Assembly: GCA_964412115.1 (NCBI GenBank)
Contig: CAYPMM010000007.1
Coordinates: forward strand, 1 to 36,500
Length of the DNA: 36,500 nt
From: an uncultured Candidatus Saccharibacteria bacterium
GTDB lineage: Bacteria > Patescibacteriota > Minisyncoccia > HO2-45-28
Direction of reading: 5' to 3'
The position numbers and the translations under genes are program-made. Below are positions 6,878 through 31,789 of the stretch, one piece after another (the first letter of the stretch is position 1; every line of letters starts with the position of its first letter). Under the pieces are notes generated by a model that made no database searches, was not told the DNA's origin, and was given only the letters and a program-made list of their open reading frames with translations.

Positions 6878-6888
6878 ACGTTTTGGTT

Positions 6889-7953
6889 TTAAATAAACGG
6901 GTTTTGGGCTCCTCTGACTTCAAAATGCACATGGCATCCGGTAGAGTTGCCGGTGGCTCCTTCGTATCCGATTACCTGTCCCTGAACCACATTCCAGCCC
7001 GCCTGAACTATTAAGGAGCTCATGTGCGAATAAAGAGTCTGCGTGCCGTTGGCGTGATTTATGACCGCGTACAAGCCGTATCCGCCGTTCCAGCCGAAAG
7101 ACCTCGCGACAATCACCTGGCCTGATGCCGAAGCCATTATCGGAGCCCCGCAGTAGCTTGCCAGGTCAACGCCGTTATAGCCATGTAGGCCCTGTGTTTT
7201 TCTTCCTCCCAATATCGGACGCATATAATATCCGGCGTAACTCGGACCGGCGCCTCCGCGGTAAGGATTCCTGGAATAAATACCGCTTGAGACGATATAA
7301 GACTCACCGTTTGGAATTATGATTATCTGTCCGACGGCAAGGGTCCCCGAAAGAGGCAAATCGTTAAAACCTATTATTTCGTCCTCATCACCCTTAAATT
7401 GCCTGGCCACAGACTTAAGGGTGTCTCCTTTTTTCACTTCATATTGAACTCCGGAAATCGGGAGGATAACCAAGGTCTGGCCCGCGGTTATTAGGTCGTT
7501 TCGCTTAAGATTGTTCGCCCATGCGATCGTATTGATAGAAACACCGAACATTTTAGCAATACTTGAAAGGTTATCTTTTTCGCGGACTATATAAATTGAA
7601 ATCTGGTCGTGTTTTCGCGATTCAACCTCAATGTCGGCAATGCTTCCGAGCGGTCCCGATACGGCAAGCAGGGCGCTATTTTGAACTATCGTTATATCGC
7701 CGCCGCCGATTCCAGCCAGAGGGTCAATGTTGTTTGGCGCTTCAAGTAAAGGCATGTTCTGGGAGCTTAAAGCCGAAGCCGACTGCGTTTTGGCTTCAGC
7801 CGAAAAAATACTTTTCAAGACATCCAGAAAACCGGCTTCCGTTTCATTAAAATTCAGAAAAAATATGCTTAAAACTGCCAAAACCGTCAAGAGCAACCCC
7901 CGTCCTGAAGGGGTCAAAAAAGAGGTTTTAAAGCCTCGCTTTCCCGAGTTCAT
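6889..7953 (-). CDS. Secreted LysM-domain M23 metallopeptidase
   Basis: 354 aa with an N-terminal anchor, two LysM repeats and a C-terminal M23 domain (HVHFEVR). Confidence 0.9.
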   Translation of the reverse strand: MNSGKRGFKTSFLTPSGRGLLLTVLAVLSIFFLNFNETEAGFLDVLKSIFSAEAKTQSASALSSQNMPLLEAPNNIDPLAGIGGGDITIVQNSALLAVSGPLGSIADIEVESRKHDQISIYIVREKDNLSSIAKMFGVSINTIAWANNLKRNDLITAGQTLVILPISGVQYEVKKGDTLKSVARQFKGDEDEIIGFNDLPLSGTLAVGQIIIIPNGESYIVSSGIYSRNPYRGGAGPSYAGYYMRPILGGRKTQGLHGYNGVDLASYCGAPIMASASGQVIVARSFGWNGGYGLYAVINHANGTQTLYSHMSSLIVQAGWNVVQGQVIGYEGATGNSTGCHVHFEVRGAQNPFI

Positions 7954-10473: not shown

Positions 10474-11277
10474 ATGACCAAACTTGGCCAGAATTTTCTA
10501 ATATCCAAACGCATCGCCGAAAAAATGGCCGATTCGGCCGAAACCGGCCCAAAAGACGTTGTTTTGGAAATAGGTCCGGGCAGAGGCATTTTAACCGGAG
10601 AGTTATTAAAACGCGCCAAAAAGGTGGTCGCGGTTGAAAAAGATGCCGCGCTTTTTGATTTTTTAAAGCAAAAATTCGCCGAAGAAATCCAAAAAAAACG
10701 GCTGGTTTTGATAAAAGATGATATCCGCGACTTCCTCAAAAATCCTGTTAAACATCCGATGTTTAACAAAGTGGTCGCCAACATCCCTTATTACCTTACC
10801 GGCCAGCTCCTGCGGCTCCTCCTGTCGCCAGTGTCGGATACCAGGTATCCGACAATAAAAGGATTGATTATTCTGATGCTTCAAAAAGAGGTAGCCCAAA
10901 GAATGGTGTCGGATACCCGGTATCCGACAAAAAGAAAGATGAGTCTTTTGGCTATTTCGGTCTGGGTGTGCGCTCGGCCAAAAATTGCTTTTTTGGTCAA
11001 AAAAGGCAATTTTTGGCCTCAACCGAAGGTAGATTCGGCGGTTGTTGTGTTCAAAAGACGGGAAAGGGACTTTTTCAAGGAGCACAAAATAAGCCAAAAG
11101 GCATTTTTTGACACGGTCAAGGCCGGCTTCGCCCACCCGCGCAAGGTCCTCAAAAACAACCTCGCTTTATCAGATATCGGATGTCTGATAAAGTGCGGGG
11201 TTGAAGAAAAAGCGAGAGCGGAAGATTTGTCGCTTGAAAACTGGGCCTGCTTGGTAAAATCATTATCAAAACTATAG
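10474..11277 (+). CDS. rsmA: 16S rRNA (adenine1518/1519-N6) dimethyltransferase
   Basis: 267 aa with SAM motif LEIGPGRGILT, NIPYY, MLQKEVAQRM and PKVDSAVV. Confidence 0.9.
   Translation: MTKLGQNFLISKRIAEKMADSAETGPKDVVLEIGPGRGILTGELLKRAKKVVAVEKDAALFDFLKQKFAEEIQKKRLVLIKDDIRDFLKNPVKHPMFNKVVANIPYYLTGQLLRLLLSPVSDTRYPTIKGLIILMLQKEVAQRMVSDTRYPTKRKMSLLAISVWVCARPKIAFLVKKGNFWPQPKVDSAVVVFKRRERDFFKEHKISQKAFFDTVKAGFAHPRKVLKNNLALSDIGCLIKCGVEEKARAEDLSLENWACLVKSLSKL
10832..10854. repeat. 23-bp perfect palindrome, copy 1, in-frame inside rsmA
   Basis: TGTCGGATACC-A-GGTATCCGACA, which encodes VSDTRYPT. Confidence 0.95.
10907..10929. repeat. 23-bp perfect palindrome, copy 2, in-frame inside rsmA
   Basis: TGTCGGATACC-C-GGTATCCGACA, 75 bp (25 codons) after copy 1, again encoding VSDTRYPT. 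Confidence 0.95.
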
Positions 11278-11625
11278 ACTGGTTCCAATCATTATGACCG
11301 TGTATTGAGTCGGATATGTTTTAGGACCGACAGTGCAAACACCGCCGGGGTTAGCCAGTCCCAAGGCCCATTTACCAGGTCTGTTTGGAGGACCATATGG
11401 GTAAGTAACCGCTGAATAGGGATAAAAATATAGTCCCGGACGCGGAGGACTGAGGGTAAATGCTATACCCCCGGAGCAAATATGGTCAATTTTGATTATA
11501 CGTCCGCCAAAAGGGATAGCCGCCGCATAGGCCAATGCCGGACCGTCATTACCAAAAATAGAAAATGGCGCCAGAATGGCCACAACAACCGCAAAACCAA
11601 GCGCGCCCGTAAAGAATTTCCTCAT
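11272..11625 (-). CDS. Small secreted Pro/Gly/Tyr-rich hypothetical protein
   Basis: Start moved to MRKFF, which begins a signal peptide, with TATAAT 6 nt upstream. The track ORF extends to 11688. Its stop abuts the rsmA stop. Confidence 0.55.
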   Translation of the reverse strand: MRKFFTGALGFAVVVAILAPFSIFGNDGPALAYAAAIPFGGRIIKIDHICSGGIAFTLSPPRPGLYFYPYSAVTYPYGPPNRPGKWALGLANPGGVCTVGPKTYPTQYTVIMIGTSL

Positions 11626-11689
11626 GCTTATATTATAGCAGTGGTTATCCACACTTGAAAACAAAACTAAATTAAAGGTAAAAAGCAAA

Positions 11690-11698
11690 TGCTATAAT
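11690..11698 (+). promoter_or_regulatory. Extended -10 (TGcTATAAT) ahead of the VirB4-type locus
   Basis: TGCTATAAT lies 14 nt upstream of the first ORF of the co-directional block. Confidence 0.4.
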
Positions 11699-11712
11699 TA
11701 TTGTAAGGCAAA

Positions 11713-12753
11713 TTGCCCCAGATTTTGGCATTTTTAGGAAACAAAAAAATAGTTTTTGCAACAATTCTTGCTTTGGTTCTCGGAGCGGGCGTGTTTTGGA
11801 TTTATTCCGCCAAAGGCGGACCAACCTTTGGTTGGCAAAAATCAGGCGGTAAAAAAATCGCTTCAAGCGAAAATCCGCTTGCGGTCTCAATACAAAAACA
11901 GCTGACCGACTCTCCCGACTCAGACGGCGACGGCTTAAAGGATTGGGAAGAACAGCTTTGGGGCACGGACCAGAATAGTCCCGACAGCGACGGCGACGGG
12001 ACGCCTGACGGAGAAGAGATAAAAATCGGACGGGACCCGCTCAAAGCGGGGTCAAATGACTATTTAAACCCTTCCTCTGCAAACAAGGAAGATAAAGCTC
12101 CGCCGGAGAAACTCAACCTCACTCAAAAAACAACACGCGATCTTTTTGTTTCATACATTCAGCAAAGGCAGTCGGGACTTGACCCGATATCGGCTTCGGA
12201 GGGGGTCATAAACGCAATTTTAAACGACAGCGGCGTTCCGGAGTTTGAAAATACCTTTTCTCAAAAAGACGTAAAAACGGACGCCTACGCCTCTTCCGAA
12301 GAAAAAAAGAACTACATCAACGAACTCGCGCGGATTACTAATGACGGCGGGGAAAAAATAAAAGCAAACGAGCTTAAAACTCTCGAGCGCGCCATAAATC
12401 TGGCTAATTCTTCGGATAGTTTTGAAAAATTCGGAGAGTTTGCGGACAACGCCGCGGTTTATAAAAAAATGGCCGCGGATATTTTAAAAATGTCCGTGCC
12501 GCAAAATTACGCCTCGGCTCATCTTCGGTATTTAAACGCGCTGAATAACCTTTCCGAAATAAACTTGGTTTTTTCCGTTTTTATGTCCGACCCCATACCC
12601 GGACTTTCGGCGGTCAAACAATATCTGACGGAGGCCGAAAATATAAAAAACTCGCTTTTGGTCTTGGGCGTATCGATACGCGCCGACCGATTGGTTTTCG
12701 GGCCCGAAGAATATGGATTCGCTTTTCTAAGTTTAGTAAATCAACTGCAATGA
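11713..12753 (+). CDS. Membrane-anchored protein with thrombospondin type-3-like Ca-binding repeats
   Basis: 346 aa with an N-terminal TM helix and DSDGDG...DSDGDGTPDGEE repeats. Uses a TTG start, so the start is uncertain. Confidence 0.55.
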   Translation: MPQILAFLGNKKIVFATILALVLGAGVFWIYSAKGGPTFGWQKSGGKKIASSENPLAVSIQKQLTDSPDSDGDGLKDWEEQLWGTDQNSPDSDGDGTPDGEEIKIGRDPLKAGSNDYLNPSSANKEDKAPPEKLNLTQKTTRDLFVSYIQQRQSGLDPISASEGVINAILNDSGVPEFENTFSQKDVKTDAYASSEEKKNYINELARITNDGGEKIKANELKTLERAINLANSSDSFEKFGEFADNAAVYKKMAADILKMSVPQNYASAHLRYLNALNNLSEINLVFSVFMSDPIPGLSAVKQYLTEAENIKNSLLVLGVSIRADRLVFGPEEYGFAFLSLVNQLQ

Positions 12754-14288
12754 GAATTTATTTACTCATCTTTATTTTTATCGCAATCTTATTTCCGTTT
12801 TATAACGCCGATGCTCAATTCGCCGCGAGGGGCCTTTCCGTGCCAACGCTTGATATCGGCCTAAATCCAAAAGAGTTTTCGCTGGACCTAATCACTAACG
12901 CCATCGGCGTATCCCTAATACGAACAATGTCCGACAATATCCAGAGCTGGATACGAAACGGTTTTGACGGAAAGCCTCTTTTTGTGACCGACTGGGAGGG
13001 ATTTTTGCAAAAGGCCGGAAACGAAGCGTTTGGTATTTTCGTAGACGACCTGATCGCGAAAGGCGCGCCCGATATCTGCAGTCCGTTCAGAGAGGATGTG
13101 GTATTGGGGCTCATTTCCATTTCTCGGCCTCCCAGAGCAAGATGCACGCTTGATGCGGTAATATCCAACGTTAATTCTCTTTATAACAATTTTGAAACTT
13201 ACGGCTGGACGGGATTTGCCGGAATCACGACGGCCAATGTTTCCAATAACGCTTTCGGTTCTTTCCTTCTAAAGCTCGACCAGGCCTCTTTGGCGGTCGC
13301 GAGAAAAACGTCCGGCCTTCAAAACGAAGCTCTTGCGTCCCGCGGATTTTTAAGCTGGAAAGAAGATTTTAACTGCGTAAGAGACGAGATCACCCAGGAA
13401 GACCGCTGCCAAACAAGAACCGTAACACCGGGAAGTTATATTGCCAACCAATTGGATTTACCCTCGCAATATTCGGCTATAAAAACGGCGGTGGCCGACG
13501 AGTTTAACGAACTCATTTCGGTGGTAGCGCAGGAGCTTTTACAAAACGCTTTGAGCGGTTCCCGGCCCGGAGGAGTTTTAAGAAGTTCGCCGCGGCCCTC
13601 GCCTGACTACTCAAGCGTCATTGAAAATCAAAGAGCATATTTGTCGTCGGTTTTAAGAACCGATCTCATTGCTCCTGAAACACAATATGTTGAGGCCAAA
13701 CAATTATCGGCAAGCGCCCTGCTTCGCTCAATTTCAGTTTTTCAAGAACTGGAAAGAGCGCAAAGTGCTTCACGAAGCTCCGAAATCGTCCAGAGTCGCG
13801 ACGCGTTTGACAGAATCCGTACTGAATTTAATCTCGCTGACATAAAACTTGCGCGATTTGAAAATATCTTGATAGATGTCCAGCGAATGACAACCATCGC
13901 GGAGATGAATAATCTCGCCCAACTGGTGGTGGGTCTCCAAAGAGATACGCGATCGCAGATAGAAATATTGGATGCCCAGGCGCAAAATGCGTCCTTCCAA
14001 AACGCCCTTGATGCGCTTATCGCGGAACTGCAAATATCTGGCCCTTCGCGTCAATTTCTGACACTTTCCGCCTTTCCAACTTTCATAACCTCCGGACGCT
14101 CGTCTCTTCTCTCATGGTCAAGCCTAAATGTTGCGAGTTGCGCCGCTTCGGGATCAGAGTGGAGCGGTTCAAGACCAGTTTCCGGCGACCAAAAAGTTTT
14201 TCCGATAAGAACTTCAAATTATCGGCTTGCCTGCTCCGGTCCAAGCGGCGCGTTATCGGCTACGACAACAATAACCGTTTCGCCTTAA
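12750..14288 (+). CDS. Secreted hypothetical protein with a C-terminal Ig-like segment
   Basis: 512 aa with a signal peptide. ATGA 4-nt overlap with the upstream gene. Confidence 0.6.
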   Translation: MRIYLLIFIFIAILFPFYNADAQFAARGLSVPTLDIGLNPKEFSLDLITNAIGVSLIRTMSDNIQSWIRNGFDGKPLFVTDWEGFLQKAGNEAFGIFVDDLIAKGAPDICSPFREDVVLGLISISRPPRARCTLDAVISNVNSLYNNFETYGWTGFAGITTANVSNNAFGSFLLKLDQASLAVARKTSGLQNEALASRGFLSWKEDFNCVRDEITQEDRCQTRTVTPGSYIANQLDLPSQYSAIKTAVADEFNELISVVAQELLQNALSGSRPGGVLRSSPRPSPDYSSVIENQRAYLSSVLRTDLIAPETQYVEAKQLSASALLRSISVFQELERAQSASRSSEIVQSRDAFDRIRTEFNLADIKLARFENILIDVQRMTTIAEMNNLAQLVVGLQRDTRSQIEILDAQAQNASFQNALDALIAELQISGPSRQFLTLSAFPTFITSGRSSLLSWSSLNVASCAASGSEWSGSRPVSGDQKVFPIRTSNYRLACSGPSGALSATTTITVSP

Positions 14289-14289
14289 A

Positions 14290-16143
14290 ATGGCCGCCTT
14301 AAATCACAAAATAATAAGCGCGTTTCTGCTGGTTTCAACACTCGCGCTCTTTTTGCCGCTGCATAACATTCTGGCGCAAGGCGCGCCGCCCACAGTCGAA
14401 GAGGGGGACGAAAATGTTTTTTTCGGGCAGCGGTTGCAACAGCAAACATCAGGAGAAGGACAGCCGACAACGCCGTCAGGACAAACATCTTCACAGCCGG
14501 TAGCCGCGAATGAATCCGTCGCCGCGGCCCTTCGGACAGCCGCTTGTCCGGTAATCAGCAACGTCGCATTTTACATTACCGCCTGCGGATTGCTTACCGC
14601 CGGCGGATGGGTGGTGTTTGTGGTTTTGATGGCAGTTTCGGCCTTCTTCGCTTTATTCGGCAATCTTTTTGACCTTGTAACGGCAGTCACTCTCAACCCG
14701 GCGACATACAGCGTGCCGGCCATATATCAGGGCTGGACGGTCGCCCGAGACACCGCGAATATGTTTTTCATATTCATACTCCTAACCATCGCCATCGCCA
14801 CAATTTTGCAGATAGAAACATACGGCGCTAAAAAACTTCTGCCAAAACTCATTGCTGCCGCGATTTTCATCAACTTTTCTTTTCTGCTCACGCAATACGT
14901 GGTTTTCGCCTCCAACATCATGACCGGATTTTTCCTGCCGGGCGCGGGAACCGCCAGGGGCCCAAGCGCGCAGCTGTCGGTCATGTTCCTTGCCGGCATC
15001 AATCCAAACGCGATGTACAAAAACACCCAATTCAATTTGGGCGCCATTGCCGATACGCAAAAAAAACTGGATGAGACCCGTTTGAGATTGTCTGAAAGTC
15101 TTGCGTTTCAAGACGAGAGTTCAACCGACGCGGAAATACTGGCGGCGCAGCAAGAGTTTGAGCGCGCAACCGCCGAAGAGACCCGGCTTTCGCAACAGTT
15201 AACCAATCAGCAAAAAGAACTGCCCAACACTCTGCTTCAGCTGATTGTGGCGATGCTTGGCGTAATCGCTTTCATATTGGTGGCAACTTTTGCTTTGGGA
15301 TTTGCCGGAATTTCTCTTTTAATCCGGGTGGTTGTTTTGTGGTTTTTGATGATTTTGTCTCCCATCGCTTTTCTCTTTTTTGTAATTCCGGGTCTTGGCG
15401 GACACGCTTCCAAGTGGTGGGGCGAACTTTTGAAACAATCGTTTTTCGCGCCGGCGTTTTTCTTCCTTTTCGGGCTTACGGTGAATATGATTTCCACCCC
15501 TCAAGCGCGGGCGCTTTTCGGAATCGGCGAAAATATCGCCCAGCAGGCAAACGCCGGCGCGTTCAACACCGCGCTCATAGTCAGTTTCACCTCGTTTGCC
15601 TACTACACTTTGCTTATAATAATGCTAATCGCAAGCGTCCTTGTGGCCAAAAGCATGGGCGGAGCTACGGCCCAGTGGGCCGAGAAAGGAGCGAAGTACG
15701 CCAGAGGCGCTGCTTTGGGATATGCAGGAAGAGTGGGCAGGAAATATGCGATAGAAGCAACGGGTGCTGTGGGCAAAGCCGTAACCAGCGGAGAAGGACG
15801 GGTGGCCCAAGTCTTGCGGCAAACTCCGTATGTCAACAAGATGTTCGGGGCCATGGAAGCCACACAGCGAAGAGAGGTTAAAAAATACGAAAAACAATAC
15901 GGTTCTTTCAGCACAGACGCTCTTAAAAACATTGAGTCGGCTCCGGGGCTTCGTGTTGCCAGCGAAAGAAACGCAATAAGAAATATAATAAACAAAAGAG
16001 ACGAAGACAGGCGAGATGATGAAATACTTAAAAACGGAGACGCGATAAGCAAAATGAGGGTGATGGACAAAAGGGCCAAAAAAAATAAAGCGGACGCGGA
16101 ACAGGCAAAGCGAGAAGCGGAAGAAAAAAATCCCAAAACTTAA
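14290..16143 (+). CDS. Polytopic TrbL/VirB6-like membrane protein
   Basis: 617 aa with a signal sequence, a Q/T/P-rich linker, at least 6 TM helices, a coiled-coil insertion and a K/R/E-rich tail. Confidence 0.65.
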   Translation: MAALNHKIISAFLLVSTLALFLPLHNILAQGAPPTVEEGDENVFFGQRLQQQTSGEGQPTTPSGQTSSQPVAANESVAAALRTAACPVISNVAFYITACGLLTAGGWVVFVVLMAVSAFFALFGNLFDLVTAVTLNPATYSVPAIYQGWTVARDTANMFFIFILLTIAIATILQIETYGAKKLLPKLIAAAIFINFSFLLTQYVVFASNIMTGFFLPGAGTARGPSAQLSVMFLAGINPNAMYKNTQFNLGAIADTQKKLDETRLRLSESLAFQDESSTDAEILAAQQEFERATAEETRLSQQLTNQQKELPNTLLQLIVAMLGVIAFILVATFALGFAGISLLIRVVVLWFLMILSPIAFLFFVIPGLGGHASKWWGELLKQSFFAPAFFFLFGLTVNMISTPQARALFGIGENIAQQANAGAFNTALIVSFTSFAYYTLLIIMLIASVLVAKSMGGATAQWAEKGAKYARGAALGYAGRVGRKYAIEATGAVGKAVTSGEGRVAQVLRQTPYVNKMFGAMEATQRREVKKYEKQYGSFSTDALKNIESAPGLRVASERNAIRNIINKRDEDRRDDEILKNGDAISKMRVMDKRAKKNKADAEQAKREAEEKNPKT

Positions 16144-16158
16144 AAATTAAATTAAAAT

Positions 16159-16731
16159 ATGCAGCCACTAACACCGGAACAATTATTCGCAAAGTACGAA
16201 AAAATACCAAAAGACTTGCAAGACGCCATATTAGACGCCGGAACTTCGGATATCATCGGCGCGATAACCAAAAAATACGGTCTGAACCTTGAGCAGGCCG
16301 GAAACCTTGCTGACGAGGTCGGGCTTTTGATGCTTGGCGAAACCAACCCGCGTGATTTTACGGCAAACTTAATCAAACGGCTCGAAACCGACCCCGAGAT
16401 GACAAAAAAAATAGCCCAGGAAATAAACGAGCAGATTTTTTCAAAAGTGCGCGAGTCGCTTAAAAAAATACACGGCGTAAGCGAAGAGGAAAAACAAGGG
16501 GCCGCGGGACCTCAGCCCGCAAAAACGGAAACCCCGGCACCGAAGCCGTCTTCGGGTTTAGGCGAGTCAAGACCCTCGCCATTTGAACAAAAATTGGAAG
16601 ACAAAGTTTTTCCGCCCAAGGCGGACCAGCCTTTGGCTGGTGTGCCCGCGCTTAAAAAAGAGGTGGAACAAGCGCAAAAAGAAAATCGTTATCCGTCTAG
16701 CGCGGACCCGTACCGCGAACCTCCAAAATAA
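16159..16731 (+). CDS. Hypothetical soluble protein with a Pro/Ala-rich C-terminal half
   Basis: 190 aa, in the operon, with no family recognised. Confidence 0.5.
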   Translation: MQPLTPEQLFAKYEKIPKDLQDAILDAGTSDIIGAITKKYGLNLEQAGNLADEVGLLMLGETNPRDFTANLIKRLETDPEMTKKIAQEINEQIFSKVRESLKKIHGVSEEEKQGAAGPQPAKTETPAPKPSSGLGESRPSPFEQKLEDKVFPPKADQPLAGVPALKKEVEQAQKENRYPSSADPYREPPK

Positions 16732-16733
16732 TT

Positions 16734-17138
16734 ATGCGCCAATTTTCAGTTCCGCAATTCATAGAAGTAGAAGACAAAATTTTCGGGCCGCTTACGCTCA
16801 AGCAGTTTATTTATCTGCTTGGAGGAGGGGCATCCGTATTTATAATTTATGTTTTCGGAGGGATGCTGGGCGTTATTTTTCTCGGCCTGCCGATTGCGGT
16901 TTTTGCGGCAGCGCTCGCTTTTTATAAAATAAACGGCCAGCCCTTTATAAACATAGCGGCAAGCGCCGTATCTCACTACAGCAAATCAAAACTTTACATT
17001 TGGAAAAGGGTTGAGACAAAAAAACAAGACATCCGTAAAATTCCGGCCCTTGAACAAAAACTGGTCCTGCCGAAAATCACCGAAAGCAAATTAAGAGACC
17101 TGTCCTGGTCTTTAGACGTAAAAGAAAAAATAAAATAA
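16734..17138 (+). CDS. PrgI-family (VirB3-like) membrane protein
   Basis: 134 aa. The N-terminus FSVPQFIEVEDKIFGPLTLKQFIYL followed by two TM helices is typical of PrgI/VirB3-like proteins. Confidence 0.65.
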   Translation: MRQFSVPQFIEVEDKIFGPLTLKQFIYLLGGGASVFIIYVFGGMLGVIFLGLPIAVFAAALAFYKINGQPFINIAASAVSHYSKSKLYIWKRVETKKQDIRKIPALEQKLVLPKITESKLRDLSWSLDVKEKIK

Positions 17139-17140
17139 GC

Positions 17141-17794
17141 ATGGCCAAAGCACAATCATCGCAAGAATTCGTTCCGATAAAAGAAATACGCGACGGGATA
17201 ATGATTACCGACGACGGAAATTTGCATATGGTTTTGATGGCCTCCTCCCTGAATTTCGCCCTTCGCTCCGGGGAAGAGCAGGAGGCAGTCACGGCCCAAT
17301 ACCAGAATTTTTTAAACTCGCTGGATTTTTCGGTCCAAATCATGATTCAGTCGCGCCGGCTTAATATTGACCCGTATCTTGAAACCTTGCGCCAGGCCGA
17401 AAAAGAGCAGACAAACGAGCTGATGAAAATTCAGACCCGCGAATACGTGGAATTCGTGCGCACTTTCGTCTCAACCACCAAAATCGTCACCAAAAGTTTT
17501 TACATTGTGGTTACATTTGTCCCGCCTTTTTTGGGGATAGGCAAAAAGGAGGGTTTCGGAGGATTTTTTAAAAAATTTTTCACCGGTGAAAAAAAAGAGG
17601 ACAAACAGATAATGGACGAAAAGTTTGAAGAATACCGGACACAGCTTTGGCAAAGGGCCGAAACGGTCTCGGGCGCCATCGCTTCAACCGGAGTCAGAAC
17701 CGCGCCTTTAAACACCGAGGAATTGGTCGAGCTTTTTTACGGGCTTTTCAATCCTGGGGAACTGGAACGCGGACACGCTCCGCAAGTTAGATAA
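17141..17794 (+). CDS. Hypothetical protein resembling the N-terminal non-ATPase region of VirB4/TrsE proteins
   Basis: 217 aa. The pattern FVPIKEIRDGIMITDDGNLHMVL...YQNFLNSL resembles VirB4 N-domains. The next gene starts 1 nt after its stop. Confidence 0.45.
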   Translation: MAKAQSSQEFVPIKEIRDGIMITDDGNLHMVLMASSLNFALRSGEEQEAVTAQYQNFLNSLDFSVQIMIQSRRLNIDPYLETLRQAEKEQTNELMKIQTREYVEFVRTFVSTTKIVTKSFYIVVTFVPPFLGIGKKEGFGGFFKKFFTGEKKEDKQIMDEKFEEYRTQLWQRAETVSGAIASTGVRTAPLNTEELVELFYGLFNPGELERGHAPQVR

Positions 17795-17795
17795 T

Positions 17796-19616
17796 ATGGC
17801 ATTAAAAGATTTATTCGGAAAAAAAGAGGAGAAGGCGGGCGATGAAATTATCGCCATAGAGCCATCGCAAATTTACGAGGCGGCGGTTTTGGAATTAAAA
17901 GACGTAATCGCGCCTTCAGCCCTTGAAGTAAATTCAAACTTCGTAAAAATCGGGGAAAAGACCGCCCGCACTCTTTTTGTTTTTTCATATCCGAGATTTC
18001 TGGCCATAAATTGGTTTTCACCAATCATAAATTTGGACAAGGTTTTTGATATATCGCTTTACGTCCACCCAATGGACACCGCCTCCGTTTTGAGACAACT
18101 GCAAAAAAAAGTGGCCGAGGTCCAGTCGCAGATACACATGCGCGAAGAAAAAGGGCTGGTCAGAGACCCGATGCTGGATGCAGCTCATCAAAATCTTGAG
18201 GAATTAAGAGATAAGCTCCAGCAGGCGCAGGAAAAATTATTTTCTTTTGGACTTTACATCACCATTTACGCCGACACTCTTGAAGAGCTGGACCGCGAGG
18301 AGTCGGAGATAAGGTCAATGCTTGAATCAAAACTGATTTACGCCAAACCGGCCTTGTTTCAGCAAAGCGACGGGCTGCTTACCGTGTTCCCTCTCGGATA
18401 TGACAAGATAGGCATAAACTCCAAGCTTAATTCTTCTCCAATTTCAAGCCTGTTTCCATTCGTATCGTTTGATTTAACCTCAAATAAAGGAATCCTTTAC
18501 GGAGTCAACCGGCACAACAACAGTCTGGTTCTTTTTGACCGCTTTAGTTTGGAAAATTATAACTCGGTAATTTTTGCCAAGTCCGGCGCCGGAAAAAGCT
18601 ACGCCACGAAATTGGAAGTGGTGCGTTCGCTTATGTTTGATACCGACGTTATAGTCATTGACCCCGAGCGCGAATACGAATACTTGGCCGAAGCGGTTGA
18701 CGGCCGGTATTTCAGCATTTCGCTTTCTTCCCCGCATCACATCAACCCGTTTGACCTGCCCAAACCCAGAGAAGATGAAGATCCGGCCGATGTTTTGCGT
18801 TCAAATATCATCAATCTGGTCGGGCTTTTCAGGATAATGCTCGGCGGGCTCACTCCCGAAGAAGACGCGGTGCTTGACCGGGCGATAACCGAAACCTACG
18901 CCTCGCGCGACATAACGCCCGATTCAGATTTTTCTTCCAAAATTCCGCCGATACTCTCCGACCTTGAATTGGTTTTGGCCAACATGGAGGGGGGCGAGGG
19001 ACTCGCGCAAAAAATGCGCAAATACACCCAGGGCACGTGGGCCGGATTCATAAACCAGCCGACCAATGTTGATATCAATAAAAAAATGGTCGTTTTTTCG
19101 GTAAGAGACATGGAAGACGAACTAAGGCCGGTCGCGATGTATTTGGTGGTCCACCACATTTGGAACGCGGTGCGCAAAACAATCAAAAAAAGAATTCTGG
19201 TCATTGACGAGGCCTGGTGGATTATGAAAGAAGAACAGGGCGCGTCATTTTTATTCAGCATAGCCAAGCGCGCGCGAAAATATTTCTTGGGGGTCGCGAC
19301 CATAACCCAGGATGTCGGCGATTTTCTGCGCTCGCCTTACGGCATACCAATAATTACCAACTCTTCAATTCAGATACTTTTGAAGCAGTCGCCGGCAACG
19401 ATTGACCTGGTGCAAAAAACCTTTAATCTCACCGACGAAGAAAAGTTTTTGATACTTGAATCCGACGTCGGCGAGGGACTGTTTTTCGCGGGGTTAAAAC
19501 ATGTCGCGATAAAAATAATAAGCTCGTATACCGAGGATCAGATAATAACTTCGGACCCGCATCAGCTGCTCGCGATTAAAAAAGCGAAGCAGGAAATTAA
19601 TCCCGAAAATAAATAA
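17796..19616 (+). CDS. virB4: VirB4/TrsE/PrgJ-type T4SS ATPase
   Basis: 606 aa with Walker A KSGAGKSY and Walker B RILVIDEAWW. Confidence 0.85.
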   Translation: MALKDLFGKKEEKAGDEIIAIEPSQIYEAAVLELKDVIAPSALEVNSNFVKIGEKTARTLFVFSYPRFLAINWFSPIINLDKVFDISLYVHPMDTASVLRQLQKKVAEVQSQIHMREEKGLVRDPMLDAAHQNLEELRDKLQQAQEKLFSFGLYITIYADTLEELDREESEIRSMLESKLIYAKPALFQQSDGLLTVFPLGYDKIGINSKLNSSPISSLFPFVSFDLTSNKGILYGVNRHNNSLVLFDRFSLENYNSVIFAKSGAGKSYATKLEVVRSLMFDTDVIVIDPEREYEYLAEAVDGRYFSISLSSPHHINPFDLPKPREDEDPADVLRSNIINLVGLFRIMLGGLTPEEDAVLDRAITETYASRDITPDSDFSSKIPPILSDLELVLANMEGGEGLAQKMRKYTQGTWAGFINQPTNVDINKKMVVFSVRDMEDELRPVAMYLVVHHIWNAVRKTIKKRILVIDEAWWIMKEEQGASFLFSIAKRARKYFLGVATITQDVGDFLRSPYGIPIITNSSIQILLKQSPATIDLVQKTFNLTDEEKFLILESDVGEGLFFAGLKHVAIKIISSYTEDQIITSDPHQLLAIKKAKQEINPENK

Positions 19617-19618
19617 AA

Positions 19619-19996
19619 ATGGCCGAACAAAATCAAATTGAAAACGAGCGCGCTTTAAATCTTTTGGAATCGCGGAAAAACGGCGGCTCCGCGGAAAAAA
19701 ACGCGCCCGCGGGCTCAAACGTGGGAAAGTCCGAATTCGGACTGATGGTTGGTTTTGCTTCGTTTTGCGATTTAATTAGCCAGATACCCGGAGTCGGCTT
19801 TATAATAGACGGTATGGCGTGGTTTACGATATTCGCGTGGACCCAGACCCGCGGACTGAAAAAACCTCAAATTTTTCATCTAAGCGGGGCGGGCGGATTC
19901 ATCCCTTTTTTGCCGGCCTATACCGGAATGGTGGTGTTTTTATATTTTTACAATGATAACCCCCAATTCAGGGCGTTTTTCGGAGGAGAAACATGA
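19619..19996 (+). CDS. Small membrane protein, hypothetical
   Basis: 125 aa with 2-3 hydrophobic segments, in the operon. Confidence 0.5.
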   Translation: MAEQNQIENERALNLLESRKNGGSAEKNAPAGSNVGKSEFGLMVGFASFCDLISQIPGVGFIIDGMAWFTIFAWTQTRGLKKPQIFHLSGAGGFIPFLPAYTGMVVFLYFYNDNPQFRAFFGGET

Positions 19997-20997
19997 AAAA
20001 TAAATTTTTATCAATAATAATTTTTCTGGCTTTTCTGGCGGTCTTGCCCGTTTCGGCGCAAGTTGATTTTGGTTTGGACGTGAATAACTTTTTCATTGAA
20101 CTGCGTCCAACCGACGCTCCGGGCCCGAATCAAAATATAACCGCGAGACTTTCAACAACTTCGTTTGATCTCAACGGGGCAAGAATAACCTGGACCCATA
20201 ACGGGAGAGTTTTGGCCCAAGGAACAGGGGTGAGAGAGTATAACTTCACGACCGGCCCTCTTGGCTCAAGAGAAAGACTTGCTGTTTCGGCGACAGACAC
20301 CAACGGATTGCGCCATGACACGGAATTGTCGTTTATCGTCTCCGACATTGCCATGCTGTGGCAAACCGACACTTCAATTCCTTATTGGTATAAAGGCAAG
20401 GCGCTGGCATCTCCAAAGTCGGCTGTGACCGTAAGCGCGTTTCCGGAGTTAATATCGGGCGGAAGAAAAATCCCCTCGTCGGGTTTGATTTTCCGATGGT
20501 CTTTAGATGATGATTTTAAACAATCGCAGTCGGGGACCGGAAAAGACACCTTCCGGTTCGGCGCCGGATTTTCTTCGGGTTTGGCGCATAGCGTAAGTCT
20601 TGAAGTTTCAAATATCGCAGGCGATATAACCGCCAAAAAATCGGTCGGTATAAATATTGGGGACCCAAAAGTTTTAATTTACGAATACGACCCGCTTTTG
20701 GGGACGAAAAACAATTCGGCTTTCGGCGGACAAAGAAGCGGTGTTATTTTTGCCGGGGAGGAAAAATCGTTCATGGCCCATCCGTTTTTCTTTTCGCGGC
20801 AAAACGGAGGAACGGAAAAACTTGAATACTTGTGGGGCGTTAACGGCCGCGACGCCGACCCCGGAGAGCCGTTTAATATATTGCGCCTGAAAACAACCTC
20901 GGACGCTCTGGGTCTGTCAACAATCGGGGTTCTTATAAAAAACACGGCGAACATATTACAAGAAGCAAGGCAAAGTTTTCAAATAGATGTTTTATAA
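19993..20997 (+). CDS. Secreted beta-rich hypothetical protein
   Basis: 334 aa with a signal peptide (AVLPVSAQ). 4-nt overlap with the upstream gene. Confidence 0.55.
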   Translation: MKNKFLSIIIFLAFLAVLPVSAQVDFGLDVNNFFIELRPTDAPGPNQNITARLSTTSFDLNGARITWTHNGRVLAQGTGVREYNFTTGPLGSRERLAVSATDTNGLRHDTELSFIVSDIAMLWQTDTSIPYWYKGKALASPKSAVTVSAFPELISGGRKIPSSGLIFRWSLDDDFKQSQSGTGKDTFRFGAGFSSGLAHSVSLEVSNIAGDITAKKSVGINIGDPKVLIYEYDPLLGTKNNSAFGGQRSGVIFAGEEKSFMAHPFFFSRQNGGTEKLEYLWGVNGRDADPGEPFNILRLKTTSDALGLSTIGVLIKNTANILQEARQSFQIDVL

Positions 20998-21790
20998 AAC
21001 ACTTTACACATTATTAATAATTGTAATAGCGTTCGTTTTTGTCGTCGGACCGGTTTTGGTCTTTGCCGAAACTAGCGCAACGATAGGCGGACAACAACAG
21101 GAAAAGCCGCCGGAAATACCCGCATGGACTACTGCCAAGGGCGGTTTTATAACATTCCTGCAGTGGCTTTTTCCGGTGATGATTGCCGCAGCGGCGGTTG
21201 TCGCCACCCTTTCTATTATATTTGCCGGTTTTCAGTGGATGGCCGGAGCCATCTCGCCTCCGCAGGTGGAAGCAGCCAAAAACCGTATATCGGCCGCCGT
21301 TTTGGGTCTAGCCGTCGCTCTCGGCTCGTGGTTAATTTTGAATACAATAAATCCTGTTTTCACCAACCCAACAGCGCCGGTTGGATTTACGCTCCAATGC
21401 CCCGGCGGAGTATGCCCGAGCTGGACGGATGTTTTGTTTGGAGCGCCTGGCACCGTAGATTTGACACCTAAACCGCTAGGCGACCTTGGGGGCTCCGCTC
21501 AGAAATTCGTTGGATCTCCGGGTGGACAAGAACAAACAAATGCCGCAAACAATTTTGAAAACGTCGTGTGTCCCGGCAGGGGGCAAGAGGCTGTTAAAAA
21601 TCCATCGGGATCAGGCGCTGTGTGTGTTGAACCAACAAATGGCAACACCAAACTAAGAGTAAAACAAATAAACTGCATCAACTCGTACCAGGCGATGGAG
21701 CTTAAAAAATTGGGAATAGTGCAGTCCGCCCCCGAACGGCTTCCTGCGGGATGCGAAAAAATATTAGATGAGTTTGTAGATATCCCATGA
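20987..21790 (+). CDS. TrbC/VirB2-like pilin with a long Cys-containing C-terminal extension
   Basis: 267 aa with a signal anchor plus a two-TM hairpin (..FAGFQWMAG..LGLAVALGSWLILNTINP), followed by about 130 aa containing 6 Cys. Confidence 0.55.
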   Translation: MFYKTLYTLLIIVIAFVFVVGPVLVFAETSATIGGQQQEKPPEIPAWTTAKGGFITFLQWLFPVMIAAAAVVATLSIIFAGFQWMAGAISPPQVEAAKNRISAAVLGLAVALGSWLILNTINPVFTNPTAPVGFTLQCPGGVCPSWTDVLFGAPGTVDLTPKPLGDLGGSAQKFVGSPGGQEQTNAANNFENVVCPGRGQEAVKNPSGSGAVCVEPTNGNTKLRVKQINCINSYQAMELKKLGIVQSAPERLPAGCEKILDEFVDIP

Positions 21791-22950
21791 ACAAACCACT
21801 TGCCATCGGACTTATAATCTTCTTCATACTCGTAATCGCCGGCGGGGCGGTTTGGCTTGCGGTAAGGCCGGAACAGGAAGTTGAAACAACGGAGCGCGGA
21901 GCGATTTTGAGATTTCCGTTCGGGCTATTCGGGGGCGGGGAGGAAGAGACGCCTACAATAACAACCCCGACAACGACGGAGCCAGAGGAAAAACCGGCTC
22001 TTTTGCTTCTTGACTCCGGACCGGTTGAAAGCTTTGCCATAACCAAAAACGGCGTAAGATACGTTTTAAAACAAGACGGTCACGTCTCCAACATCGGACC
22101 CAGAGGAGAGGAACAAACACGCGTATCTAACACCACCATCACCGGAATTTTTGATGCCGCATGGTCTTCAGATGCGTCAAAAACAATTCTCAAATATTTA
22201 GAAGGCGGAAACATAAGAACGGTATCGGCTGAATTCGTATCAACTTCAACCAGGGCGGTTGTCCTCCCGCAAAACATAATCTCATTTTCTTTCGCTCCAA
22301 ACCAAGACCGTATCGCTTATCTTATTCCGACATCGGCCGGCGCCCGGCTTATTACTGCAAATACCGACAACACGAAACAAACCGAGCTCGCAAATCTGCC
22401 GTTTAAAGATTTTGATATATTCTGGCCGGAAAACAACTTCACATATTTCTTAAGCCGTCCTTCCGGCTCGGCCGGGGGCTTCCTTTTTAAATACGGCATT
22501 TCAAGCGGAGCTCTGGACAAAATCCTGGACAATTTAGCCGGACTGCAAATAAAGTTTTCGCCCGACGGACAAAAACTTGTTTATTCGGCATTTGACGCCC
22601 AATTTCAGCAGTCTCGCCTGTTTATTTACGATATTAAATCAAAAGAGGCGTCTAATCTGCAAACACCCGGACTTGCCGGTAAATGCTCTTTTTCGGCAAG
22701 CGGAAAAAACAAAATTTATTGCGGGCTTGACCGCAATCCCGCGCCGGCCGTCTATCCTGACGACTGGATGCAAGGCTCCGTATCAACGAATGACCTGTTT
22801 TGGGAAATTGACCTTGTAACCGGCCGCAGAGAACAGCTAACCGACCGCGGATTTGATATAAAACAGACGGAGTTATCCGAAGACGGCCGATTTATTTATT
22901 TCTTAGAAAAAAATAACGGCTCTTTATGGAGCCTGAAAATTAGCGATTAG
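21787..22950 (+). CDS. Membrane-anchored TolB-like PD40 beta-propeller protein
   Basis: 387 aa with an N-terminal TM helix and PD40-like repeats (FSPDGQKLVYSA, LSEDGRFIYF). Confidence 0.6.
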   Translation: MNKPLAIGLIIFFILVIAGGAVWLAVRPEQEVETTERGAILRFPFGLFGGGEEETPTITTPTTTEPEEKPALLLLDSGPVESFAITKNGVRYVLKQDGHVSNIGPRGEEQTRVSNTTITGIFDAAWSSDASKTILKYLEGGNIRTVSAEFVSTSTRAVVLPQNIISFSFAPNQDRIAYLIPTSAGARLITANTDNTKQTELANLPFKDFDIFWPENNFTYFLSRPSGSAGGFLFKYGISSGALDKILDNLAGLQIKFSPDGQKLVYSAFDAQFQQSRLFIYDIKSKEASNLQTPGLAGKCSFSASGKNKIYCGLDRNPAPAVYPDDWMQGSVSTNDLFWEIDLVTGRREQLTDRGFDIKQTELSEDGRFIYFLEKNNGSLWSLKISD

Positions 22951-24896: not shown

Positions 24897-26258
24897 ATGA
24901 CCAACGAAGAGCTTTGGAGGGAAATCCTCGGTGAATTGGAATTGACGGTTTCAAAAGCCAATTTCGCGACATGGTTTCAAAATACTTTCATTGCCGACCA
25001 GTCAGAAGGAAAAATAACCGTAGGAACGCCCTCGGCTTTCGTCAAAGAATGGCTTGAAGATAAATATCAAAAAAATATCCTAAGATTCCTGCGTCTGCGC
25101 TCTCCCGAGGTGCGCTCGGTGGAATTTAGAATAGCGTCAAAAGAAGCTCCCCAGAACAAAAAAACGGCCGAAACCCGGCCGGCGGAGGAACAAATGGATT
25201 TCCGCGAAATATACACCGACCGCGAAACCAATCTCAATCCCCGCTATACCTTTGATAATTTTATTGTCGGCGTATTCAACGAACTGGCGCATGCTTCGGC
25301 TTTGTCGGTGATAAATAATCTCGGAACTCTCTATAATCCGCTTTTTATCTACGGCGGCGTTGGGCTGGGCAAAACCCACCTTATGCAGGCGATAGGGAAT
25401 AAAATAAAATCCGGCCGGCCGGACAAAAAAGTCTTCTATTTAAGCGCCGAGAGGTTCGCCAATGAGCTGGTGTCGGCCATCAGAAACAACGAAACCGGAT
25501 TTTTTAAAGATAAATACCGATCCTACGATGTTATGATCCTTGACGACATCCAATTCATATCAAGCCGCGGAGCATCCACTCAGGAAGAAATCTTCCACAC
25601 TTTCAACACGATGTATCAGGCAAACAAGCAGATAATATTTTCTTCAGACCGGCCGCCGAAATCAATTTCCAACATAGAAGACCGGCTTAGGTCGCGTTTT
25701 GAGGGCGGAATGATAGCCGACATAGCCGAGCCTGACTATGAAACACGGCTGGCAATACTTCAGTCAAAAGCTGCCGAAAAACAGGAATACCGTCCGTCTC
25801 TTGAGGTATTGGAACACATAGCCGCGAGCGTTCAGTCCAACATAAGAGAGCTTGAGGGTTCGCTTAATTCCATAATAGCGAGATCAAAAATCAGAAAACG
25901 GCCGTTGGGATTGCCGGAGGTTAAAGAAATACTAATTAAAAACGAGAAACCGAAAAAGACTTTAAGCGCCCAGCAGATAATAAGGAAAATCGCCCAGTTT
26001 TACGAGATACCCGAAAAAAATCTTTTTGAAAAAACAAGAAGAAAAGAGGTGGTCAAACCAAGGCAAATAGCGATGTATCTTTTGCGTGAAGACTTTAACG
26101 GTTCTTTTCCTTATATCGGCAAGAAGTTCGGGGGACGCGACCACACGACAGCTATACACGCTTACGCTAAAATAACCGGCGATTTAAAAAAGGACGACCG
26201 ATTAAAAGAGGAAATGAAAATAATCAGAAACCAATTATATGAAGAAGAAAAACAGTGA
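24897..26258 (+). CDS. dnaA: Chromosomal replication initiator DnaA
   Basis: 453 aa with AAA+ Walker A GGVGLGKTHL and a C-terminal DnaA-box binding domain. Confidence 0.97.
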   Translation: MTNEELWREILGELELTVSKANFATWFQNTFIADQSEGKITVGTPSAFVKEWLEDKYQKNILRFLRLRSPEVRSVEFRIASKEAPQNKKTAETRPAEEQMDFREIYTDRETNLNPRYTFDNFIVGVFNELAHASALSVINNLGTLYNPLFIYGGVGLGKTHLMQAIGNKIKSGRPDKKVFYLSAERFANELVSAIRNNETGFFKDKYRSYDVMILDDIQFISSRGASTQEEIFHTFNTMYQANKQIIFSSDRPPKSISNIEDRLRSRFEGGMIADIAEPDYETRLAILQSKAAEKQEYRPSLEVLEHIAASVQSNIRELEGSLNSIIARSKIRKRPLGLPEVKEILIKNEKPKKTLSAQQIIRKIAQFYEIPEKNLFEKTRRKEVVKPRQIAMYLLREDFNGSFPYIGKKFGGRDHTTAIHAYAKITGDLKKDDRLKEEMKIIRNQLYEEEKQ

Positions 26259-30610: not shown

Positions 30611-31789
30611 ATGAAGAAGAAGCAGTTTGGCCAATTTTTTACTAGGGAAGCCGACCACATTTTTAGTGGATTAGAAAAATACATAAAGGGCAAAAAAGCA
30701 ACAGACCCATTTGCTGGTGCTGGCGACTTATTAAATTGGGCCAAGAAAAATGGTGCAAATAAAATCGTTGGCTATGATGTTGATCCAACGTACGCCAACT
30801 CTAAAAAAATAGTTTTGAATGATTCACTTTTGGCTCCAAAAAAATATTCTTTCGTGATTACGAATCCTCCGTACCTGAATATAAATAAAGCCGACAAGAT
30901 TACGAAAGAGCGTTATTTCAATAATTTTGAATATGAAGATTTATACCAGATTTCTTTGGCGTCAATCATGGATAGCGACGAGGGCATTGTTATTGTGCCC
31001 ATTAACTTCTTATCTGCTGAAAATTCAAGAAAAATACGAGACAGATTTTTCGGCAAGTTCAGAATAGTTGAAATGAATTATTTTAAAAACCAGGTCTTTT
31101 CGGACACGACCTATAATGTAATAGCGTTTTATTATAAGAAAAAAAGAAACACCCTTGACGATTCTTTTATTATTAACTGCCGTATTTTTCCCGACAGGCA
31201 GAAGATTAAAATAAAACTGGAACAGAAATTTCATTGGACCATTGGCGGAAACGATTTAATCCAAATTGAAAAACAAAGAAACACCCTGGGTATTCACAGA
31301 CTAGTTGAAAACGACTTAGAATCAGGGAGTTGTATTATAAAAGCCGCCCACAACCACATCAAAACCGTTAGGGAATATAGGGTTTCGGGCCCACTGCGCG
31401 ATTCCATTAAAGAGAACCTGATTTTGCTTAGGGCTATTGACAGCGGGACACCCGAGGGTAAAATCCGCCTCGAAAATATAAAAAAATACGGCGTTGACTG
31501 TTTGGTCAGCAAAGAAAGCTCCAGAAATATGATATATTTATTGTTTGAAAAGAGATTGTCCCTGGATGAGCAAGAAAAAATAATCGAGACTTTTAACGAG
31601 GAAATCGGCAAACTACGAAAAGATTATTTCTCGCTTTTTTTGACGAATTTCAGAGATAATGACAGAAAAAGGATTTCATTTGACTTTGTCTACAAATTTA
31701 TTAATTATTTGTATTTCAGTAAGATAAATTATGACGCAGAAAGGCAAATCAGCTTATTACCAATGAGACAATATGAACAAGTGGGTTAA
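30611..31789 (+). CDS. N6-adenine DNA methyltransferase (motif I before NPPY)
   Basis: 392 aa with DPFAGAGDL (FxGxG) and VITNPPY. Confidence 0.85.
   Translation: MKKKQFGQFFTREADHIFSGLEKYIKGKKATDPFAGAGDLLNWAKKNGANKIVGYDVDPTYANSKKIVLNDSLLAPKKYSFVITNPPYLNINKADKITKERYFNNFEYEDLYQISLASIMDSDEGIVIVPINFLSAENSRKIRDRFFGKFRIVEMNYFKNQVFSDTTYNVIAFYYKKKRNTLDDSFIINCRIFPDRQKIKIKLEQKFHWTIGGNDLIQIEKQRNTLGIHRLVENDLESGSCIIKAAHNHIKTVREYRVSGPLRDSIKENLILLRAIDSGTPEGKIRLENIKKYGVDCLVSKESSRNMIYLLFEKRLSLDEQEKIIETFNEEIGKLRKDYFSLFLTNFRDNDRKRISFDFVYKFINYLYFSKINYDAERQISLLPMRQYEQVG

Follow-up and report, generated by a model that had tools for sequence, protein, structure and literature searches.

Type IV secretion systems (T4SSs) that lack a relaxase and are encoded on the chromosomes of Patescibacteria were described between 2023 and 2025, and the operon considered here is one of them, not a new kind of system. 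It consists of eleven genes, g01 to g11, in a 36.5-kb stretch of DNA from an uncultured bacterium of this phylum, a relative of Candidatus Niyogibacteria in the Paceibacteria (contig CAYPMM010000007.1 of assembly GCA_964412115.1, positions 1 to 36,500), the whole of which we call the window. The survey of Quinonero-Coronel (2025) groups 2,425 VirB4 proteins, drawn from 2,407 Patescibacteria assemblies, into one monophyletic clade that is nested in MPF_FATA; the partner most often found with VirB4 is TrsD, and PrgI/VirB3, VirB6 and VirB2-like pilins are encoded near virB4 (PMC12102498). Of 3,035 Patescibacteria genomes, just 103 had a relaxase; most genomes have VirD4-like genes, which are seldom located near virB4, and the neighbours of virB4 in Paceibacteria include dnaA, dnaN, rnpA, ksgA and rpmH (PMC12102498). 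Using transposon sequencing, Wang (2023) showed that a homologous cluster, SEML1_0006-0019, is required by Southlakia epibionticum, a Saccharibacterium, in order to grow epibiotically, and noted pilins and no recognisable coupling protein or relaxase in that cluster; comEC was dispensable in this organism while the T4SS was essential (PMC10633639). Two reviews call the role of the Patescibacteria T4SS unknown (PMC12857230, PMC11665869), and a 2026 preprint describes feeding on host RNA and, by cryo-electron microscopy, tubular structures at the parasite-host interface that are possibly T4SS pili.

An earlier note on this DNA, made from the sequence alone, regarded the locus as its best candidate for an undescribed system. 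That claim fails, because the TrsD/PrgI/VirB6/VirB2 set, the lack of a relaxase and the place beside dnaA, ksgA and rnpA are all on record in the 2025 survey; the system has been published (PMC10633639, PMC12102498) and reviewed (PMC12857230, PMC11665869). Few machines are known to be indispensable to episymbiosis in this phylum, which holds a large share of bacterial diversity, and the Patescibacteria T4SS is one of them; what the present locus contributes is a parts list for Paceibacteria: ten near-universal genes, a slowly evolving VirB4, an extended pilin and a soluble protein with a DPYRE tail. The conserved accessory proteins without a T4SS role, the pilin extension and a possible DnaA box in the promoter are not described in earlier work, and the components listed can serve as specific targets, both for structural modelling and for genetic work on the few members that can be cultivated.

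The operon comprises 11 co-directional open reading frames (ORFs), which extend from 11713 to 22950 of the window:

g01, 11713..12753, + strand: 346 aa; anchored in the membrane at its N terminus, with two TSP3 repeats (calcium-binding type) and a C-terminal region that is helical
g02, 12750..14288, + strand: 512 aa, secreted; N-domain of ~290 aa with cysteines, helical bundle and small variable C-terminal beta domain
g03, 14290..16143, + strand: 617 aa, polytopic, VirB6/TrbL-like of the extended type; central hydrophilic loop and charged C-terminal tail
g04, 16159..16731, + strand: 190 aa, soluble; N-terminal domain of ~110 aa, proline-rich linker and C-terminal DPYRE peptide
g05, 16734..17138, + strand: 134 aa, PrgI/VirB3-like membrane protein
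g06, 17141..17794, + strand: 217 aa, TrsD-like; the VirB4 N-terminal domain as a gene of its own
g07, 17796..19616, + strand: 606 aa, VirB4 ATPase (motor domain)
g08, 19619..19996, + strand: 125 aa, small membrane protein with ~3 hydrophobic segments; accessory
g09, 19993..20997, + strand: 334 aa, secreted or anchored; three beta-sandwich (immunoglobulin (Ig)-like) repeats
g10, 20987..21790, + strand: 267 aa, VirB2/T4SS-pilin-like; leader, two hydrophobic helices and a Cys-rich C-terminal extension of ~145 aa
g11, 21787..22950, + strand: 387 aa; N-terminal anchor and TolB-like (PD40) beta-propeller

From g01, the first gene of the operon, to g11, the junctions measure -4, +1, +15, +2, +2, +1, +2, -4, -11 and -4 nt in order, which is exactly the arrangement of 1-15 nt gaps and 4-11 nt overlaps that the earlier note gave for an eleven-gene co-directional block. 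The TTG start of g01 is uncertain. More than 80 further loci repeat this order, so the block is no accidental series of ORFs.

The motor of the system is the VirB4 ATPase g07. The Walker A (SGAGKS) and Walker B (ILVIDEAW) motifs on which it had first been recognised can be read in the sequence, both intact, and the protein scores 377 bits against the NCBIfam model of the CD1110-type VirB4 (NF045971; cut-off 325), with additional matches to Pfam P-loop_TraG and AAA_10. Of solved structures, that of the Thermoanaerobacter VirB4 is closest (PDB 4AG5, E = 4.8e-39); the diderm TrwK is matched at E = 3.5e-7. Among the 120 g07 matches listed (75-100% identity), every named entry is from Patescibacteria, the top ones being Candidatus Niyogibacteria at 90% and Candidatus Giovannonibacteria at 80% identity, and the nearest VirB4 proteins from outside the phylum come from monoderm plasmids and elements (Streptomyces, Bacilli, Clostridia) at 29-36% identity, many of them annotated as CD1110 family. 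Because the named homologues listed are all Patescibacteria and the outside relatives are at most 36% identical, the VirB4 of the window very likely falls inside the monophyletic Patescibacteria clade.

Directly upstream of virB4, at a distance of 1 nt, is g06, which was found in 83 loci. Since g06 covers positions 2-120 of the 752 positions of the CD1110 VirB4 model and g07 covers positions 183-733, VirB4 is split over two genes, as in TrsD/TrsE of pGO1. The g06 protein also matches the NCBIfam model VirB4_plasma and, under the curated cut-off, the TrsD/TraD model NF041427 (E = 8e-6); its orthologues match the Pfam TraC-like family PF26593. The earlier note had counted this VirB4-N-like protein of 217 aa among seven ORFs without a T4SS role, and six of the seven stand as such, with g06 now belonging to the TrsD family, a recognised MPF_FATA component.

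The PrgI/VirB3-like assignment of g05, which lies directly upstream of g06 in 77 loci, holds at 41.9 bits against Pfam PrgI (cut-off 27). The two other assignments of the earlier note, a TrbL/VirB6-like protein and a TrbC/VirB2-like pilin, draw support from the orthologues, with the proteins of the window themselves falling under threshold. For g03, hydropathy indicates ~8 hydrophobic segments; the window protein has no Pfam match and reaches 26.5 bits (E = 2.6e-6) against the NCBIfam CD3337/EF1877 model, far under its cut-off of 120, while 8 of 32 syntenic orthologues match Pfam TrbL (best E = 1.3e-7) and the orthologue profile weakly matches TrwI/VirB6 of R388 (E = 0.047). For g10, the leader and two hydrophobic helices correspond to the core topology of a VirB2-type pilin, and the window protein scores 18.9 bits against Pfam T4SS_pilin, under the cut-off of 26.6, with 39 of 41 orthologues matching the family (best E = 5e-10). 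No solved structure was matched when the g10 profile was searched against the PDB.

What distinguishes this pilin is its C-terminal extension, which in 40 of the 50 orthologues runs to at least 80 aa, with a median of 176 aa, is rich in cysteine and varies in sequence. Single orthologues carry a Peptidase_M15 or a YkuD domain, and the length of those orthologues suggests that these domains presumably lie within the extension.

Conservation of the operon was followed through related genomes. On the 837-kb Niyogibacteria chromosome CP066691.1 and on Giovannonibacteria contigs the same 11 genes stand in the same order, in a neighbourhood that runs from ksgA to jag-yidC-rnpA-(rpmH)-dnaA-dnaN. When one genome of each GTDB species was scanned, with gene order established by iterative profile searches on ORFs, 80 more loci were obtained, among them bins with the labels Kaiser-, Nomura-, Zambryski-, Taylor-, Adler- and Terrybacteria. 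Complete loci were counted over those that reach from ksgA to jag or yidC, 34 at species level. Genes g01-g07, g09 and g11 are present in all 34 of these, g10 in 32 and g08 in 18; the order is exactly that of the window in 15, the same without g08 in eight, and altered by an exchange of g10 and g11 in seven. The block is placed between ksgA and jag/yidC in every one of the 34. Ten of the eleven genes are thus near-universal, and because gene content and order are kept in loci that span both flanks, the block is a vertically inherited, fixed operon of ~10 core genes. The earlier note had described a chromosomally fixed VirB4-based apparatus in a small-genome episymbiont lineage, with flanks of origin-proximal housekeeping genes that did not resemble an integrative and conjugative element (ICE); the synteny across related loci agrees with both points, and the flanks are indeed uvrD and ksgA upstream and jag, yidC, rnpA, dnaA and dnaN downstream.

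The proteins of the operon differ greatly in how fast they evolve. VirB4 is 69-93% identical to that of the window in loci where DnaA is 45-82%, UvrD 44-69% and YidC 35-70% identical, and is the slowest-evolving protein of the neighbourhood (loci L001-L084). Judged by these identities, VirB4 is under unusually strong constraint. The accessory proteins diverge fast, down to 22-35% identity.

The remaining gene-like ORFs of the window were scanned against Pfam, and four ORFs had no match of any kind. Among the window ORFs, no relaxase, T4SS coupling protein (T4CP), VirB11, VirB9/10 or integrase was recognised by Pfam, although a very divergent representative of one of these may be present among the four ORFs without a match. 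No relaxase domain was found in any ORF of the window, in which an origin of transfer (oriT) was not searched for; no VirD4/TcpA coupling protein occurs within the 36.5-kb contig, which is the same as the window; and domains of the VirB7/VirB9/VirB10 outer-membrane core and of VirB11 are absent from the operon and the window. The claim of the earlier note that all of these components were missing therefore holds by Pfam within the window, and for the coupling protein its reach is the 36.5-kb contig.

Compared with the Patescibacteria clade as surveyed, and with CP066691.1 in particular, the locus shows no substantive difference. It shares the VirB4 lineage (90% identity), the TrsD and PrgI/VirB3 partners and the putative VirB6 and VirB2-like ones, the lack of a nearby relaxase or T4CP, and the same 11 genes in the same order and in the same ksgA-to-dnaN position. 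The 2025 survey left g01, g02, g04, g08, g09 and g11 unnamed, and neither a propeller nor TolB nor a pilin extension comes up in its text (PMC12102498). The S. epibionticum ML1 cluster is likewise origin-proximal, contains the VirB4, TrsD-like and PrgI families and, matching the putative assignments of g03 and g10, VirB6 and PF18895 pilin families, and has no relaxase or coupling protein. The two loci differ in that S. epibionticum has an array of six small pilins, whereas the window has one pilin with a long C-terminal extension; in that the neighbours of virB4 in S. epibionticum include a triple lysozyme-like protein and one that is NTF2-like (VirB8-like), neither of which is seen in the window locus; and in the length of PrgI (300 aa as against 134 aa). 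A search of the supplement for the term "TolB" found none in the S. epibionticum annotation, where Ig-repeat and TSP3 proteins were not checked.

More distant relatives are the mobile MPF_FATA systems of monoderm bacteria, such as TrsC/TrsD/TrsE of pGO1, PrgH/PrgI/PrgJ of pCF10 and CD1110 of CTn2. Common to these systems and the window are a CD1110-family VirB4, a separate gene for the VirB4 N-domain (TrsD in pGO1), a PrgI-type VirB3, a putative CD3337/EF1877-like VirB6 and the lack of an outer-membrane core. Unlike them, the window locus lacks a relaxase, a T4CP, a VirB1-type hydrolase and a VirB8-like protein, is fixed in the chromosome, and includes a putative VirB2-like pilin, which the Gram-positive systems do not have; the VirB4 proteins are 29-36% identical. 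Still further removed are ComB of Helicobacter pylori, which serves in DNA uptake, Ptl of Bordetella and VirB of Brucella, which have no coupling protein in the locus and play non-conjugative roles. These are diderm MPF_T systems with a VirB7/9/10 core; their sequence affinity to the window is limited to VirB4, and the likeness would be one of function.

Six components, g01, g02, g04, g08, g09 and g11, have no recognised T4SS role. For these the descriptions of the earlier note as secreted, soluble or membrane proteins fit the hydropathy, and its two domain assignments stood up to profile searches. The first of them, the anchored TSP3-repeat protein g01, scores 32.6 bits against Pfam TSP3_bac (cut-off 25) and has a single N-terminal hydrophobic segment; its profile matched TSP3 repeats in the PDB and nothing else, and an AlphaFold2 (AF2) model made without an alignment was unusable (predicted local distance difference test score, pLDDT, 36). 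The second, the PD40/TolB-like propeller of g11, has one N-terminal transmembrane segment and no Pfam match, and a profile built from 40 orthologues finds TolB among solved structures at E = 3e-8 and designed propellers at E = 1e-9.

The secreted protein g02 has a signal-like N-terminal segment, conserved motifs in its N-domain of ~290 aa that include cysteines, and variable Ig-like C-terminal domains in its orthologues. A word-index search with the single sequence found 9 homologous proteins and a profile search 36. With an alignment of 37 sequences, AF2 gave a mean pLDDT of 67, and above 90 for a helical bundle at residues 288-430. Neither Pfam (searched with 30 orthologues) nor the PDB profile search returned a relative, and Foldseek returned no significant match to the model in the PDB or BFVD. 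A VirB5-like identity and a lytic transglycosylase were both considered for g02 and could not be shown, Pfam, PDB profiles and Foldseek all being empty. The other extracytoplasmic protein, g09, has an N-terminal hydrophobic segment and a W..NG or W...G motif that appears three times in the consensus, and its profile weakly matches the Ig-like protein Hoc (E = 3.7e-4). The small membrane protein g08 (38 orthologues aligned) has no match in the PDB and, by hhalign, no relation to the pilin profile.

The soluble protein g04 has no transmembrane segment. Residues D183, Y185 and E187 are invariant in its orthologues, and the DPYRE tail to which they belong is present in 51 of them; the only other carriers in these loci are two short ORFs without assignment, each at the start of a contig and probably a truncated g04. 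The N-terminal domain of ~110 aa belongs to a very large, uncharacterised family, which clusters at 50% identity into 3,987 representatives and in which it sometimes occurs as two to three tandem copies. There is no Pfam or PDB-profile relative of g04, and ten long members of the family carry no informative Pfam fusion. It may act as a cytoplasmic adaptor.

Two questions arise about the function of the system: (i) what it assembles; and (ii) what, if anything, it carries and in which direction. In T4SSs generally, VirB4, VirB3 and VirB6 form the platform that extracts pilin from the membrane and polymerises it. The split motor of g06 and g07, with g05, g03 and the pilin g10, would form such an inner-membrane platform here. 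The envelope proteins g01, g02, g09 and g11 may build the part that spans the wall and contacts the host, the variable extension of g10 would be displayed on the outside of the filament, and g04 could dock at the cytoplasmic face through its DPYRE tail. The best explanation of the locus, and one that we hold to be quite probable, is a Patescibacteria T4SS that derives from monoderm MPF_FATA systems, has lost relaxase-dependent DNA export, is inherited vertically beside oriC and forms a pilus or tube at the interface between episymbiont and host. Such a VirB4-driven structure would be needed for growth on the host and would not serve conjugation. Export of cytoplasmic substrates by a T4SS normally needs a coupling protein. 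Because the locus has neither a coupling protein nor a relaxase, contact together with uptake of host macromolecules is more probable than export of cytoplasmic substrates, and we consider such uptake somewhat more likely than the export of effectors.

Several points weigh against this explanation. All of the functional data come from one Saccharibacterium, and none from Paceibacteria, and the cluster of that organism differs from the window locus in its six small pilins and its lysozyme-like and NTF2/VirB8-like proteins. The VirB6 and the pilin of the window, g03 and g10, themselves score under curated thresholds, and the operon contains no VirB8-like or VirB1-like gene. A coupling protein may be encoded elsewhere in the genome, which would reopen the case for export of cytoplasmic substrates. 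Finally, the evidence for the proposed envelope roles of g01, g02, g09 and g11, and for the docking of g04, is solely topology and conservation.

A related possibility is dedicated import of nucleic acids, in the manner of H. pylori ComB or archaeal Ced, by which host DNA or RNA would enter a cell unable to make nucleotides. This overlaps with the pilus or tube at the host interface just described and differs in that the cargo is fixed. It was proposed in the 2025 survey (PMC12102498) and in a PNAS perspective, and several observations are consistent with it: comEC is dispensable in S. epibionticum even though nucleotides must be acquired, the 2026 preprint reports feeding on host RNA and a monophyletic clade each for VirB4 and PNPase in the phylum, and the locus resembles ComB in having no T4CP or relaxase. 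The VirB4 of the window is also weakly similar to CedB (53.8 bits), but the match is far under the cut-off of 700 bits and reflects the generic similarity of VirB4 and HerA. Moreover, the operon has no nuclease, DNA-binding protein or ComEC-like channel. With the cargo specified in this way, the reading is a possible one that we hold only tentatively.

We are more doubtful of an effector translocator, a system that would export proteins or other cytoplasmic cargo into the host with a coupling protein encoded elsewhere or, as in Brucella VirB, with none. No T4CP is present on the window contig, no candidate effectors were identified in the window, and the t4cp homologue of S. epibionticum is non-essential although its T4SS is essential (PMC12102498). 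On the other hand, Wang et al. suggest that the system "may instead export proteins" (PMC10633639), a PNAS perspective cites speculation on effector delivery, and the VirD4-like genes that most Patescibacteria genomes contain are located away from virB4 (PMC12102498). A role as adaptor or as substrate in such a system could fall to g04, whose C-terminal peptide is conserved.

It is also conceivable that the operon encodes a structurally distinct T4SS. Its pilin would bear a Cys-rich domain that decorates the outside of the filament, with a peptidoglycan-active enzyme in single orthologues; g01, g02, g09 and g11 would form a lineage-specific envelope set; and the whole would constitute a feeding tube that is essential, takes in host nucleic acid and has its expression tied to replication via the promoter DnaA box. 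Taken together, this combination appears improbable to us.

The window was also examined for signs of mobility. It contains no tRNA genes, no att-like flanking direct repeats beyond chance and no shift in G+C across the g01-g11 block relative to the flanks, and an Rfam scan of the window returned no RNA family. An ordinary ICE or its decaying remnant, with relaxase, coupling protein and integrase outside the window, might be entertained because VirB4, TrsD, PrgI and VirB6 descend from monoderm conjugation genes and because the window is a single 36.5-kb contig with the remaining genome unseen, but it is scarcely credible and, alone among the alternatives, was rejected as effectively excluded, given the negative searches in the window for repeats, tRNA, compositional shift, integrase, relaxase and T4CP, the same housekeeping flanks in 34 of 34 loci and in the 837-kb chromosome, the intactness of all genes, a VirB4 more conserved than DnaA, and the rarity of relaxases in the phylum (the 103 of 3,035 genomes cited above; PMC12102498).

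The proximity of the operon to the replication origin is accompanied by a DnaA box in the region upstream of g01:

Divergent intergenic region, 11626..11712, no strand assigned: perfect DnaA box TTATCCACA at 11645-11653; extended -10 element TGCTATAAT at 11690-11698

With its -10 element, this region is the putative promoter of the operon, and a scan for consensus promoters and terminators was uninformative. The box TTATCCACA lies ~60 nt upstream of g01 and is one of four perfect DnaA 9-mers in the window (11645-11653, 8105, 26345 and 35541), as against ~0.3 expected from length alone; all four appear to be intergenic. In 16 of 46 other species, g01 is preceded by a box that has at most one mismatch. 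By the same criterion, a box precedes internal genes of the operon in 3-15% of cases, and dnaA, dnaN and rnpA in 63-89%. The position and recurrence of the box may mean that DnaA controls the T4SS operon.

Two neighbouring genes deserve mention in connection with the operon:

o138, 11272..11688, - strand: small secreted Cys/Pro/Gly-rich protein, divergent from g01; likely start at 11625; no Pfam match
LysM-LysM-M23 peptidoglycan peptidase, 6889..7953, - strand: Pfam Peptidase_M23 and LysM; 3.7 kb upstream, outside the operon

The first, which 21 loci keep in the same place, may be associated with the operon. The second is, with some uncertainty, a candidate analogue of VirB1. Together with a ComM-like Mg-chelatase ATPase, this divergent peptidase (5360-7953 for the pair) precedes uvrD, ksgA and the T4SS, and the same is seen in Niyogibacteria and several other loci; the peptidase itself is a neighbour common to the Niyogibacteria and Giovannonibacteria loci. 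In Paceibacteria, M23/LysM-containing VirB1 homologues are associated with virB4 (PMC12102498).

The other genes of the window are as follows. Upstream of the operon are genes for ribosomal protein S15, an NYN-domain protein, polynucleotide phosphorylase (PNPase), a DksA-like protein, the ComM-like ATPase, the LysM-M23 peptidase, UvrD/PcrA and KsgA, with ksgA directly upstream of g01-g11. Downstream are jag, yidC, rnpA, dnaA (24897-26258, 1.9 kb from the operon) and dnaN, followed by genes for a class A penicillin-binding protein, a type II restriction-modification pair, tyrosyl-tRNA synthetase and RuvC. The restriction-modification pair (an Eco57I-like methyltransferase and a Tsp45I-family endonuclease, 30611-32561) is situated in a low-G+C stretch at 30.6-34 kb, where G+C is 35-42% as compared with ~47% elsewhere. 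This stretch, which lies beyond the gene for the penicillin-binding protein and outside the coverage of the fetched syntenic loci, is probably a horizontally acquired islet.

Finally, we note a perfect 21-nt palindrome, GTCGGATACC-N-GGTATCCGAC, of which two copies (10833-10853 and 10908-10928), 75 nt apart, lie inside the ksgA/rsmA ORF. None would be expected by chance. The copies encode a repeated peptide, VSDTRYPT, and may represent the in-frame insertion of a small palindromic element.

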